The notes under the pieces were generated by a model, which saw nothing but the letters and a program-made list of their open reading frames with translations, ran no database searches and had not been told where the DNA came from. The position numbers and the translations under genes were made by a program. From a virus (lineage: Duplodnaviria > Heunggongvirae > Uroviricota > Caudoviricetes), in IMG/VR virus record IMGVR_UViG_2703718816_000009: a DNA stretch of 4,084 nt. One strand, 5' to 3'. Positions 1 to 4,084 of this stretch are shown here, piece after piece. Numbering within the stretch: the first letter of the stretch is position 1; each line of letters opens with the position of its first letter.

Positions 1-48
1 TCTCCAGGATTTCCGGGGCGGTTCAATCTGATAAACACAGAGGTGACT

Positions 49-309
49 ATGGATTACACAAATCTACCAAAACAAACTTTTGCTGATTTAATCGCACTCA
101 GGCAAGCAGTCGTAGCTCTAATCAACTTGTTGCCGGAGAAGGAAAAGGAATTAGTTAAAGCGCTTCTTAACAGAACTGCCGCCGATTTTTCATCATATCC
201 ACTGACAGATGACCTTGCGGACCTTCCTGAATTAATTGCAGCGTCCGCCATTAAGCTTACTGAAGAGATTTACCCTCCTCAAAAATCTTCACAAAATTCC
301 TGCGAGTAA
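49..309 (+). CDS. Hypothetical small acidic, predicted helical protein (86 aa from ATG 49; ORF track starts at GTG 43); function unknown
   Basis: ATG at 49 preceded by GAGG (40-43) with a 5-nt spacer. The product (MDYTNLPKQTFADLIALRQAVVALINLLPEKEKELVK...) has protein-like composition with about 13 acidic and 8 basic residues and no hydrophobic segment, whereas the antisense ORF 54..251 is Ser/Ala/Arg-rich. TAA at 307-309 is followed about 20 nt later by a strong intrinsic terminator (328-363). The frame is open back to position 1, so a longer N-terminus cannot be excluded. Confidence 0.5.
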   Translation: MDYTNLPKQTFADLIALRQAVVALINLLPEKEKELVKALLNRTAADFSSYPLTDDLADLPELIAASAIKLTEEIYPPQKSSQNSCE

Positions 310-808
310 CTTCAATGCAATAATCGTAAAACGCCGCAAACTGCTCATCGCGGCGTTTTTTTTCATCTTCAGAAGGGATCAGCACCGACAATTTTTTATT
401 CAGATCAGCGACGCTGCCCTCCAGTTTTTCAATGGGCGATTCAATATCATCTTTTTCTGACCGCAATGCCGTCGGTGGCGTCTTCAGAGAACCAGTAATT
501 CTTCCCGGTAGCTTTCCTTTGTAGGTTATCCACACATTCTGCGCCTCTAAAATTATGGGGCGCTTTTCCGGCGACTGCTCATCCCCTACACATAACCCGG
601 CAGCAACATCCAGGAATACCTGTCTGATTCTCATTCTGGCTGCTGCCTCATAAAACTCCAGCGCGGCACCTTCAACACGGTCCAGCGAGATGTCCAGGTC
701 AAAAATTTCACCGTCAAAGCGTTTTTTGTCCCGTAAGGCTACAGTTACCGCCACTTTATTCTCAAAATTGCGGACTCCTTTCACAACCAGTTCATAGTCT
801 TGTGTCAT
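257..808 (-). CDS. DUF1327 / YdfR-like prophage protein with an extra C-terminal extension of roughly 80 aa (183 aa from ATG 808; ORF track gives 190 aa from TTG 829)
   Basis: The N-terminal part (MTQDYELVVKGVRNFENKV...FDGEIFDLD...RVEGAALEFYEAAAR) matches my recollection of YdfR-type proteins that follow the holin in Qin-like prophages. ATG 808 lies 4 nt after the holin stop (813-815), with a purine-rich AGAAGAGAG stretch upstream, suggesting translational coupling. The frame stays open to TAA 257-259. The mid and C-terminal portion contains clustered rare codons (AGA, ATA, CTA, GGG) and resembles nothing I recognise. Confidence 0.6.
   Translation of the reverse strand: MTQDYELVVKGVRNFENKVAVTVALRDKKRFDGEIFDLDISLDRVEGAALEFYEAAARMRIRQVFLDVAAGLCVGDEQSPEKRPIILEAQNVWITYKGKLPGRITGSLKTPPTALRSEKDDIESPIEKLEGSVADLNKKLSVLIPSEDEKKRRDEQFAAFYDYCIEVTRRNFVKIFEEGKSLQ
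328..363 (+). terminator. Rho-independent terminator for the 49..309 gene, weaker in the opposite direction
   Basis: Inverted repeat aaaacgccgc (328-337) / gcggcgtttt (350-359) around a 12-nt loop, followed on the plus strand by a run of eight T (356-363). On the minus strand the same hairpin is followed by only four U. It lies inside the minus-strand ORF 257..808. Confidence 0.6.
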
Positions 809-812
809 TGGA

Positions 813-1475: not shown

Positions 1476-1500
1476 TAAAAAACCCGCCTGAGCGGGTTTA
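1476..1500. terminator. Bidirectional intrinsic terminator shared by the convergent zinc-ribbon gene (plus) and cspB (minus)
   Basis: aacccgc (1481-1487) / gcgggtt (1492-1498) stem with a ctga loop, flanked by an A-run (1476-1480, a U-run for the minus transcript) and ttaatatt on the plus side. Confidence 0.6.
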
Positions 1501-1780
1501 ATATTGTGGTACTTTTTGTGGGAGTCATCCACTTACGCACTTTGTTTTGCTATGCCAGCAGTTAGCTTCTGCTGTAAAACTATTCATGCAGCAAACCTGC
1601 ACTTCACCACAATGGTTAGCATACTTTTCCTGATTAAGTTATTGCCAAATATGCTGGCCATTGTTTCATGTATTGGACCTCCTTACTATTTATTAAAGAG
1701 ATCCAATATTCACCACTCAGTCTGTATCTCCACTCAGGCATCAGCCTTCTTCGTTATCGTATACAGACAAACTATGAATT

Positions 1781-1996
1781 TTAATCAGTAATTATGACAT
1801 TTGCTGCTGCAGGACCTTTAGCACCACTCTCTACAGAGAAGGTAACCTTTTGACCTTCAAATAAGGTTCGAAAATTATCATTCTGAATCGCAGAAAAATG
1901 CACAAACACATCTTTACTACCATCAACAGGAGAAATAAAGCCAAAACCTTTATCAGCGTTAAACCATTTTACTAAACCAGTCATTTTATTTGACAT
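1781..1996 (-). CDS. cspB: Major cold-shock protein of the CspA family, CspB-like, 71 aa
   Basis: Product [67 protein letters not shown]... has the RNP1 (KGFGFI) and RNP2 (VFVHF) motifs. ATG 1994-1996 with TAAGGAA SD 7 nt upstream. Divergently paired with a cspF-like gene, as in Qin. Assignment to cspB rather than cspG or cspI is by recollection. Confidence 0.85.
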
Positions 1997-2156
1997 TCTA
2001 CATTCCTTAACTTGAGCCTTTCGGCATAAATGGCTTGTATAACAGAAACGACTTCGTACTTAATTGGAGAGACTCAAAGAAGGAATAAGTGAATAACACC
2101 TGAAATGAGAACTGCTTTAGTAAACTACTTCGTATATCGTCTGTTCTTCAAACCGA
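1997..2156 (-). promoter_or_regulatory. Long (about 160 nt) cspB 5' UTR with a cold-box-like element near its 5' end
   Basis: Minus-strand sequence ggtttgaagaacagac...taaagcag (about 2120-2156) resembles the cspA cold-box region (GGTTTGACGTACAGAC...TAAAGCAG). The distance from the proposed start site to the ATG is about 160 nt, consistent with the long UTRs of cold-shock genes. Confidence 0.5.
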
Positions 2157-2162
2157 CGCAAT

Positions 2163-2794: not shown

Positions 2795-2820
2795 AAAAAC
2801 CCGCTCATCAGCGGGTTTTC
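2795..2820. terminator. Bidirectional intrinsic terminator: tR'-like terminator for the short late-promoter transcript (minus) and terminator for cspF (plus)
   Basis: Perfect 9-bp stem aaacccgct (2797-2805) / agcgggttt (2810-2818) with a 4-nt loop. The plus side is followed by T-rich tctactttttct, and the minus side by a U-run from the A-run at 2795-2799. It lies about 60 nt downstream of the proposed late promoter. Confidence 0.6.
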
Positions 2821-2864
2821 TACTTTTTCTTAACGTCGGGTATATAAAGCCCATCGTTGAAAGA

Positions 2865-2923: not shown

Positions 2924-3676
2924 TTATCTCGTCACTTTTCTTAATTGCACCTCAGCATATGCTTCTTCCTGCCAGCACTTTGTAACCAGTTTATCAATGA
3001 CATCTGCATATCCTTTGTACCACTGATAATCAGTCAGGTCTGGTACCAGCTTCTGGACATGACACCGCGCCAGTGTCGTTGGTAAACGACTAAACCGGTT
3101 TCCATTGCAACGCCCACAAATCTTATAAACAGGCGCGCCATGAAGCCGGGTCCTTTTTTCATCCAGGACAATACCTTTACCCTTACACCCTCTGCACGCT
3201 GTGCTGACTTCTCCCTTACCATGACAATGCTGACATAGTTCCTTCACCCACTCTTCCTTGATAACAGACTCCCCGCTTCTGGAGTATTTCACCACTTCGC
3301 GCAATACATTATGAAATCCAGTACCAGCACAAGGCTCACAGCGAGCCTTACTTGCCGCAGACCTGGAATAATCAGCAAAGGCAAAACTCACAAGGTAAGG
3401 GATGATCTGTAACCGGATTTCTTCACTCAATTTGTTCAATGTCGGGTTATCCAGTGCCATCGCGTAATTGAGCAGACCTTCAATCGCAAACTGAGGATCC
3501 TGAACGCCAGCTTTTGCCAGGAATAAGGCAAACCCAAGCGGTGCTTTCGACTGCACCATCCCCTGCGCAGCCATCACATCCGTAATCGTTAAACCACCTG
3601 AGCCTGTCGCCGGTGCGGCATCACTCAATTTTGGAGATTTTGGGGAGTAATATTTTGGTAAGGCTTCAAGGTTCAT
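2924..3676 (-). CDS. quuQ: Late-gene antiterminator, Q family (QuuQ-like), 250 aa from ATG 3676
   Basis: Product MNLEALPKYYSPKSPKLSDAAPATGSGGLTITDVMAAQGMVQSK... with four CxxCxGxG-type cysteine motifs (CEPCAGTG, CQHCHGKG, CRGCKGKG, CGRCNGNR). ATG 3674-3676 has GGAG 7 nt upstream; the ORF-track GTG start at 3718 has no SD and would overlap the upstream gene. Its position directly upstream of a promoter/terminator pair and a holin matches Q of lambdoid phages. Confidence 0.85.
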   Translation of the reverse strand: MNLEALPKYYSPKSPKLSDAAPATGSGGLTITDVMAAQGMVQSKAPLGFALFLAKAGVQDPQFAIEGLLNYAMALDNPTLNKLSEEIRLQIIPYLVSFAFADYSRSAASKARCEPCAGTGFHNVLREVVKYSRSGESVIKEEWVKELCQHCHGKGEVSTACRGCKGKGIVLDEKRTRLHGAPVYKICGRCNGNRFSRLPTTLARCHVQKLVPDLTDYQWYKGYADVIDKLVTKCWQEEAYAEVQLRKVTR

Positions 3677-3689
3677 GCTCGTTCTCCAC

Positions 3690-4084
3690 TTACGCCAGTA
3701 CGCCAATTGCCAGCGCACGATCGATAAAACGAAATATCAGCTCCAGTTGGGAGCCATACTTCTCTTCAAATGTCACGGTATCCGCATGCAGCTCGTCGTG
3801 ATGCTTTCTGCACAAAGGCAACACAAAGAGATCATGCGCTTTTGTACCCATTCCACCCTGACCGTGGCCTATCAGGTGGTGGGGATCATCAGCTGGCTTT
3901 CCACAACATGCGCACGGCTGCGTCTTAACCCAGCGCGTGTACTTTTCATTAACCCAGCGGCGACGTTTGGGGCGTAACATAAAAGACTCCGGCGACTCCG
4001 GATCCACTTTCAGCACCAGCACCTTTTTCGCTTTATCCTGGATGATGCTGGTGGCAGGAACTGAACCGCCCCGATTTTCCTGGA
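3690..4084 (-). CDS. ydfU: C-terminal part of a DUF968 / YdfU-like prophage protein with an HNH-like Cys/His motif; 5' end lies beyond the window
   Basis: The reading frame is open from the window edge (4084) to TAA 3690-3692; the ORF-track 'start' at 4022 is an internal GTG. The C-terminus CACCGKPADDPHHLIGHGQGGMGTKAHDLFVLPLCRKHHDELH looks like an HNH/His-Me finger. It sits immediately upstream of Q, as ydfU does in Qin. Confidence 0.7.
   Translation of the reverse strand, partial: QENRGGSVPATSIIQDKAKKVLVLKVDPESPESFMLRPKRRRWVNEKYTRWVKTQPCACCGKPADDPHHLIGHGQGGMGTKAHDLFVLPLCRKHHDELHADTVTFEEKYGSQLELIFRFIDRALAIGVLA

Follow-up and report, generated by a model that had tools for sequence, protein, structure and literature searches.

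The open reading frame on the minus strand at positions 257-808 of the window, as the whole 4,084-nt stretch of viral DNA analysed here is called (IMG/VR record IMGVR_UViG_2703718816_000009), is best read as a genuine coding gene in the late (lysis) operon of a Qin-like lambdoid prophage, whose product is a long-form YdfR/DUF1327 protein built by in-frame module exchange; a probability of about three in four is estimated for this reading. The protein itself is already known, catalogued and ordinary. According to this reading the gene would be expressed with the late operon, directly behind the pinholin. Residues 1-112 constitute the family domain, and residues 113-183 represent a separate module, B, which in related lambdoid and Stx phages serves either as the N-terminus of stand-alone B-C proteins or as the linker between YdfR and a further domain, C. 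In this lineage C is absent, with a convergent 86-aa gene in its place and a terminator-like hairpin inside B. Less appreciated than the protein are the in-frame modular shuffling of this slot, the annotation of its long forms as pseudogenes and the prevalence of module B in E. coli. The features discussed below are collected in Table 1.

Table 1. Features of the locus and breakpoints against related loci, with positions given as those of the window
Feature	Position	Strand	Basis or remark
IS3-family insertion sequence end	1..25		replaces the DNA leading to the endolysin gene rrrQ in CFT073
Convergent 86-aa ORF	49..309	+	PHROG 2572, match 1-86/86, E 1.2e-53; PGAP WP_001306174.1
Long-form YdfR-family ORF	257..808	-	183 aa plus stop; ATG 806-808, TAA 257-259; ORF list
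C-terminal extension (module B), residues 113-183; 113 to about 179 in protein alignments	260..472	-	linker, heptad helix, KKRRDEQFAAFYDYC helix, short tail; mosaic breakpoints and recurrence in other proteins
Hairpin AAAACGCCGC-(12 nt)-GCGGCGTTTT, then T8	328..363		arms 328-337 and 350-359; T-run 356-363 on the + strand
Heptad repeat I122 I126 L129 V133 L136 L140 L143, spacing 4-3-4-3-4-3	380..445	-	translation
Rare-codon patch, residues 58-112	473..637	-	AGA x4, ATA x2, GGA x2, CTA, CCC; inside the DUF1327 domain
DUF1327 domain, residues 1-112	473..808	-	Pfam PF07041, profile 1-92/93, 140.8 bits
Predicted core of three strands plus a long helix, residues 1-73	within 473..808	-	82% identical to K-12 YdfR
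Module A (DUF1327 core), residues 1-83		-	protein alignments
Module a' (second sub-block), residues 84-112, or alternative block x	within 473..808	-	common to the 114- and 116-aa forms; protein alignments
Module C, about 130 aa, or alternatives c and d			ends GLTYLKGRI; protein alignments
Spacer TCCA between essQ TAA (813-815) and ATG (806-808)	809-812	-	4 nt; junction sequence
essQ, P21-type pinholin, 71 aa	813-1028	-	class II holin, dual start MKSM; PF04971, E 1.1e-33
cspB	1781-1996	-	cspA-type thermoregulator leader, Rfam RF01766
cspF, ynfU		+	
Q antiterminator	2924-3676	-	
DUF968 gene, 3' part		-	
Breakpoint against K-12 Qin	603		
Breakpoint against the 116-aa form	473		
Breakpoint against the 211-aa form	394/365		84-nt in-frame module
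Breakpoint against the 296-aa form and Stx1_499	318/317		
Breakpoint against the stand-alone protein of phage Stx2_12E129_yecE	276		

Genomic context of the locus

The window differs from E. coli CFT073 only at its ends; between position 23 and about 4061 it matches, with 99.9% identity, a Qin-like lambdoid prophage found in that strain and in many others. Positions 1-25 and 4062-4084 are inverted repeats of each other and the same terminal sequence also closes an IS3-family transposase element; both ends are thus IS3-family terminal inverted repeats, and the window is a 4-kb prophage remnant that has been cut off from its endolysin gene. In CFT073 this gene, the SAR-type lysozyme gene rrrQ, is found about 65 nt beyond what is the left edge of the window. 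The insertion sequence end has likewise cut off the upstream region of the convergent ORF, and the reading frame at 257-808, intact as it is, may have no role in its own genome. The left junction between insertion sequence and prophage was sought in complete E. coli genomes and in a set of genomes with one per species, and neither gave a match. The only real Rfam match in the whole window is the cspA thermoregulator at cspB; over positions 257-808 nothing significant was obtained, GcvB scoring 18 bits, far under its threshold of 42.

The long form as a member of the YdfR family

The 183-aa frame on the minus strand is present in the program-made ORF list, and its product matches PHROG 2091, a group of 183-aa phage proteins, from end to end (1-183/183, E 4.7e-112). 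It is a member of that group without any structural difference from it, the copy in this window being distinguished by a valine at residue 74, where at least 90% of the aligned homologues carry glutamate. The exact protein sequence occurs in at least 1000 public contigs, in which it is named 'YdfR family protein', and the phage records PhiR63_1 and 2H10 hold copies that are 97-98% identical to it. Among the three readings of the frame that had been put forward in the earlier note, that of a genuinely longer family member is borne out by this abundance of full-length homologues with the same C-terminus, and the question of the 183-aa frame is thereby settled as one of a catalogued family member without anomaly, an outcome of modest practical value.

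The N-terminal assignment to YdfR/DUF1327, which had been made from the sequence alone, is confirmed by a PF07041 score of 140.8 bits for residues 1-112 against a gathering threshold of 25 bits. The accompanying claim that family resemblance ends near residue 60 proved wrong, as the Pfam match runs to residue 112 and the family members of 114 and 116 aa, which end right after SLKTPP, are 86-92% identical to the protein across residues 1-112. The figure of about 60 residues arose from a comparison with K-12 YdfR, which is atypical and diverges after about residue 68; the idea that YdfR proteins measure about 100 aa is corrected in the same way. A cluster of rare codons had also been ascribed to the extension. 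The cluster is real, with 10 rare codons among the 55 of residues 58-112 compared with 2 of 57 in residues 1-57, but it lies inside the DUF1327 domain, and the extension proper (residues 113-183) holds only 3 in 71. The AF2 model of the protein has a mean pLDDT of 53.7, with residues 1-70 at 67-85 and residues 72-183 below 50, and is usable for residues 1-70 only.

With regard to its surroundings, the gene has the position in the lysis cassette that is typical of the family, the holin adjoining it upstream and rrrQ following downstream in the 99.9%-identical CFT073 locus. Its start codon follows the essQ stop by 4 nt, and in all of the roughly 100 loci that could be scored, namely those in which the C-terminus of the holin is recognisable, the distance from holin stop to start codon is 3-4 nt whichever module comes first. 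The frame is therefore placed for translation together with the holin, as expected for a translationally coupled pair; of the coupling to the pinholin that had been proposed, the junction is thus observed here and in relatives, and the coupling itself is predicted from the spacing.

K-12 YdfR and a possible link to RNase E

Among the closest known relatives is YdfR of the E. coli K-12 Qin prophage (P76160; PF07041), whose gene sits, like the one studied here, between essQ (pinholin) and rrrQ (endolysin). It has been demonstrated by two-hybrid assays and co-purification that residues 1-72 of this protein bind RNase E 1-597, that the tagged protein co-purifies RNA and that its overexpression changes few transcripts, with little effect on the transcriptome (2026 study, PMC13232886). 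A literature search returned this work on K-12 YdfR and RNase E as relevant and nothing on the long forms. By BLASTP, 60 of the 73 residues at the N-terminus of the long form are identical to K-12 YdfR (82%), and because of this identity the N-terminal domain of the long form may similarly bind RNase E through the catalytic half of the enzyme in late infection, and might bind RNA as well. By analogy, RNase E binding would be the best functional lead for the long form; if it extends to the long forms, their variable C-terminal modules would be the natural place in which to seek a role in late development.

The two loci differ beyond this shared domain. At the DNA level K-12 Qin is about 93% identical to the window from essQ to position 603 (about codon 68), where identity stops, to resume only about 10 nt before the start of rrrQ. 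K-12 YdfR has 103 aa, of which the final 35 or so bear no relation to anything at the locus under study, and neither the a' block nor module B nor the convergent gene is found with it. Phage and host modulators of RNase E such as phiKZ Dip, T7 gp0.7 and RraA/RraB have no sequence relationship to YdfR, and fold matches are at noise level.

An in-frame modular slot

To place the extension among its relatives, 155 loci from viral contigs and phages were gathered by tblastn in the module-B frame. The commonest architecture in this sample is that of the window, A-a-B with 183 aa (64 loci), followed by B-C with 185 aa (42), B-c with 213 aa (13), x-B with 169 aa (7) and A-a-B-C with 296 aa (3); B-d and x-B-d forms and a few broken copies also occur. 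The 183-aa form is intact in 64 of the 66 full-length copies examined. In the stand-alone B forms, B has its own ATG 3 nt past the holin stop. Insertions and deletions within B are all in frame (-21, +84 and -15 nt), and the 183-aa (AaB), 169-aa (xB) and 211-aa forms have kept an identical tail and stop codon. The mosaic breakpoints against the different relatives coincide with the module borders (Table 1).

The profile of the 296-aa A-a-B-C proteins, PHROG 1085, matches the protein only over profile positions 1-173 of 296, and alignment shows that the C domain (EWECNRP...GLTYLK) is missing from it. Module B with its in-frame indels and the same start after the holin are common to the long form, to PHROG 1085 and to the stand-alone B-C proteins of Stx phages (for example that of Stx2_12E129_yecE, 213 aa). 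On the other hand, PHROG 1085 and the B-C proteins carry the C domain of about 130 aa, which is under purifying selection, whereas the protein of this window does not. The AF2 model of the 296-aa form, with a pLDDT of 41.7, was too poor for a fold search with module C.

The border at codon 112 also bears on a second reading of the earlier note, namely that the long frame is a fusion created when a short ydfR lost its stop codon and was read through into a formerly separate downstream gene. It may be said in its favour that the short forms end just past SLKTPP (114 and 116 aa) and that B also starts independent proteins. This origin is nevertheless hardly credible, given that the 116-aa form shares no DNA with the window past codon 112 (position 473) until upstream of the lysozyme gene, and that a ydfR gene followed by a separate module-B gene was found in none of the 155 loci, the only split copies among them being one disrupted by an insertion and one 183-aa type with a 1-nt frameshift. 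Such a clean end, with homology resuming only upstream of the lysozyme gene, indicates a junction of recombination or replacement and not a point mutation. Stop-loss fusion was thus rejected, and the term domain fusion applies to the protein only insofar as modules were exchanged in frame.

When 1.84 billion representative proteins were scanned in full with HMMER, module B turned up in only 17 clusters, among them one with B behind an unrelated N-terminus (P0122) and one with B ahead of the a' block (P0135); B is thus a mobile protein module of narrow distribution, specific to Escherichia phages. Its DNA occurs in about a fifth of complete E. coli genomes (1086 of 5426). Pfam gave no match within module B, module C or the convergent 86-aa ORF, and NCBIfam has no model for any of these proteins.

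Evidence bearing on translation of the extension

Module C is under clear purifying selection, with a pooled pN/pS of 0.27 in frame compared with 0.97 and 2.10 for the two alternative sense frames; variable sites number 36, 26 and 55 at the three codon positions. To reach C from the start codon, translation has to pass in frame through B, whether B comes first, as in the B-C proteins, or follows A-a, as in the 296-aa form; B is therefore translated in those proteins. Module B itself is weakly constrained, and clear purifying selection is not seen in it: over 37 distinct sequences its pooled pN/pS of 0.70 is not separable from the 0.77 and 1.05 of the wrong frames, and variable sites number 32, 27 and 37 by codon position. 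The comparison of synonymous and non-synonymous changes that had been suggested for the extension thus does not set B apart from the wrong frames, and the coding claim for B draws on module C, frame continuity, in-frame indels and start context, and not on the dN/dS of B. The frame is open in all 37 distinct sequences (0 stop codons, compared with 145 and 270 for the two alternative sense frames), a count that is biased by the collection of the loci by tblastn in this same frame. By the author's estimate, an open frame of 71 codons would arise by chance in such composition in about 2% of cases. In the part of the extension that lies outside the overlap, copies of the 183-aa type segregate at 7 sites (2 synonymous, 5 non-synonymous), too few to give any power, and pairwise Nei-Gojobori dN/dS on the extension ranges from 0.35 to 1.1 over 43-51 codons, with too few sites to decide. 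The tail of the C-less 183-aa form is probably translated too.

It could be argued instead that the frame is open merely by chance past codon 112, the product being of about 112 aa or the gene a pseudogene, and positions 257-472 being the 3' UTR and terminator of the convergent gene; this was the third reading of the earlier note. RefSeq annotation seems to speak for it, as in each of the four RefSeq genomes inspected PGAP labels the long forms pseudogenes ('incomplete; missing C-terminus') that extend no further than codon 112, with a span of exactly codons 1-112 at this locus type and with modules B and C left unannotated. The same call is, however, made on a locus of the 296-aa type, and therefore reflects a short reference protein and not biology; such pseudogene calls on long YdfR proteins are a recurrent annotation problem. 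A hairpin resembling a terminator does lie within 257-472, as does the 3' end of the convergent ORF, and B lacks a selection signal, but codon 112 and its neighbourhood contain no stop, the same sequence runs in frame into the selected C domain in the 296-aa and B-C forms, its indels are all multiples of three, and it opens with its own ATG just after the holin stop in stand-alone forms. Chance openness is therefore improbable and has been largely refuted; what survives of it is the terminator-like hairpin inside the reading frame.

The convergent gene and the hairpin inside module B

Where the C domain would be expected, the 183-, 169- and 211-aa forms have the convergent 86-aa ORF. Its coding signature is mild (pN/pS 0.50; 11, 7 and 15 variable sites by codon position), and a promoter scan gave no convincing promoter for it. 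The two frames overlap by 53 nt, corresponding to the last 17 codons and the stop of the convergent ORF. Homology to the B-C proteins runs on to position 276, within the last 11 codons of this ORF, which thus ends in antisense B sequence.

The hairpin starts 18 nt past the stop of the convergent ORF. The charged stretch EKKRRDEQFAAF, which had been pointed out as a low-complexity tail and is indeed present, encodes it together with the T-run, the minus-strand reading corresponding to E149-F160. The stem has 10 pairs (6 G-C), a 12-nt loop and eight T residues on the plus strand, and folds at -17.9 kcal/mol on the plus strand (z only -1.6) and at -23.1 kcal/mol on the minus strand (z -2.5). A terminator scan did not report it, the loop limit of the scan being 3-8 nt compared with the 12 nt found here. 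The stem is perfect in 65 of 71 loci with the convergent gene, while its GC core is intact in only 14 of 84 loci without it, where the loss is mostly a synonymous change of an alanine codon from GCG to GCT or GCA; with so few lineages involved, the association is a suggestion and not a statistical result. The 296-aa form, from which the KRRDE codons are missing, has lost the left arm. The hairpin is a likely candidate for the intrinsic terminator of the convergent gene. Q-modified late transcription would then read through it, and antisense transcription from the convergent gene would stop there. A role as an RNA element of the sense strand was considered and rejected, as the variants are single-sided only and include no compensatory pairs.

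A convergent ORF with a terminator-like hairpin between two lysis genes is reminiscent of the morons of lambdoid phages, which are extra genes with their own terminator lying between essential phage genes, and the sharp homology breakpoints at module borders that characterize lambdoid mosaicism are seen here as well. The locus departs from typical morons in that no convincing promoter was found, in that the convergent gene has its 3' end and its terminator-like hairpin inside a neighbouring coding sequence, and in that exchange has taken place in frame within one ORF and not between genes. Segregating sites number 7 in 159 nt of the extension, compared with 55 in 336 nt of the core and 64 in 216 nt of essQ. 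The extension and the convergent gene thus form a block of low diversity, which indicates a recently spread cassette that recombined onto diverse holin and YdfR alleles.

These observations also lend some weight to a different account of the extension, in which it is translated but vestigial. It would be what remains of the N-terminus or linker of a B-C unit after recombination at about position 276 brought in the convergent-gene cassette and displaced the functional C domain, and it would have been kept only for the terminator and 3' end of the convergent gene. The contrast in pN/pS between B (0.70) and C (0.27), the arrest of B-C homology inside the convergent ORF, the low-diversity and apparently young block, and the perfect hairpin that tracks the convergent gene are all compatible with such a history. 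It is a tentative alternative, distinctly less probable than a gene built by module exchange, given that the 183-, 169- and 211-aa forms keep the same tail and stop, that the 183-aa form is the commonest in the sample and almost always intact, and that heptad positions are conserved across B alleles.

Returning to in-frame module exchange as the preferred origin of the gene, a much broader proposition can be derived from it, although it is speculative and unlikely to hold as a whole. The slot between pinholin and endolysin in P21-type cassettes might be a locus of in-frame module shuffling that combines an RNase E- and RNA-binding DUF1327 domain with interchangeable modules B, C, c and d to yield late modulators of host RNA decay or of lysis timing; B would act at once as linker, as recombination joint and as terminator of an antisense moron, and the family would have been hidden by RefSeq annotation.

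Structural features of module B

Within the extension, AF2 places helices at residues 123-141 (pLDDT 40-50) and 147-182, both of low pLDDT. In the alignment of module B, the heptad positions L129, L136 and L140 are invariant (seen as L17, L24 and the leucine after NKK), and residues 122-143 form a possible short coiled coil, as far as can be predicted from the translation. The extension would accordingly be pictured as a weakly constrained helical or coiled-coil appendage, which might serve in dimerisation or as a tether. The tryptic peptides of residues 113-183 include DDIESPIEK and DEQFAAFYDYCIEVTR.

Annotation and natural variants of the long YdfR forms

The long YdfR forms are treated as pseudogenes by PGAP ('incomplete; missing C-terminus') at four RefSeq loci, among them a 296-aa-type locus, none of these calls reaching beyond codon 112, and modules B (residues 113-183) and C (the C-terminal domain of the B-C and 296-aa forms) are left without annotation at these loci. 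The pseudogene call seems to be an artefact, caused by the shortness of the reference protein. Disruption of the 183-aa type was found in 2 of ~66 copies, at the sampled loci L022 (IMG/VR 2622736468_000007) and L064, one of the two carrying an insertion of ~770 bp at CDS position 223-231 (9-bp overlap) and the other lacking 1 nt at CDS position 245. Furthermore, natural variants such as the 172-aa protein P0077 (...SEDEKNTAMSSLRRF...) possess a frameshifted tail that begins at the A8 run inside the ORF, and indels or transcriptional slippage may be concentrated at this run. With regard to single residues, position 74 is Val in the window copy (codon GTA, 587-589) as well as in CFT073, and Glu (GLCEGDE) in at least 90% of the aligned family members.

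Repeats, antisense frame and a protein resembling module B

The 9-mer GATGAGCAG, which encodes Asp-Glu-Gln, is present twice in the 183-aa gene. An antisense ORF lies opposite module B, and the corresponding antisense frame contains only four stop codons across the 37 distinct module-B sequences; this ORF probably arises secondarily from the codon pattern of the sense strand. In addition, the unrelated secreted or OmpA-like protein P0125 (622 aa) carries nine tandem repeats (…KQEKLEGSVTDLREGLEKRFAAFG…) similar to the KLEGSVADL...FAAF part of module B, a likeness that is probably due to coiled-coil convergence.

Features located in the window and PGAP calls at RefSeq loci
Feature	Position	Strand	Remarks
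cspA thermoregulator	window 1718-2157	-	Rfam, 157 bits vs gathering score 78
Hairpin, AAAAACCCGC...GCGGGTTT type	window 1478-1500		after ynfU
Hairpin, AAAAACCCGC...GCGGGTTT type	window 2798-2822		between cspF and Q gene
GATGAGCAG, copy 1	window 578-586		minus-strand codons 76-78; DUF1327 core
GATGAGCAG, copy 2	window 343-351		minus-strand codons 154-156; hairpin loop
Antisense ORF, 74 codons	window 236-460	+	opposite module B
A8 run inside ORF	window 356-364		minus-strand codons 149-151, GAAAAAAAAC
PGAP pseudogene call	L001 8451-8786		RefSeq locus
PGAP pseudogene call	L017 1341-1676		RefSeq locus
PGAP pseudogene call	L018 1402-1650		RefSeq locus
PGAP pseudogene call	L019 1411-1752		RefSeq locus

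Window ends and other elements

Positions 1-25 and 4062-4084 of the window are mutual inverted repeats (TCCAGGA..CGGGGCGGTTCA), the CFT073 sequence departs from the window at both of these ends, and the 23-mer at the right end exactly matches the terminus of an element whose annotation reads IS3-family transposase. These inverted-repeat ends and the 23-mer identity mark the window as a prophage fragment with an IS3-family end on each side, the left one separating the fragment from the endolysin gene and the right one truncating the DUF968 gene. The Rfam cspA thermoregulator match spans the cspB leader and 5' region, as would be expected in the Qin cold-shock gene cluster. Both AAAAACCCGC...GCGGGTTT-type hairpins look like bidirectional terminators.
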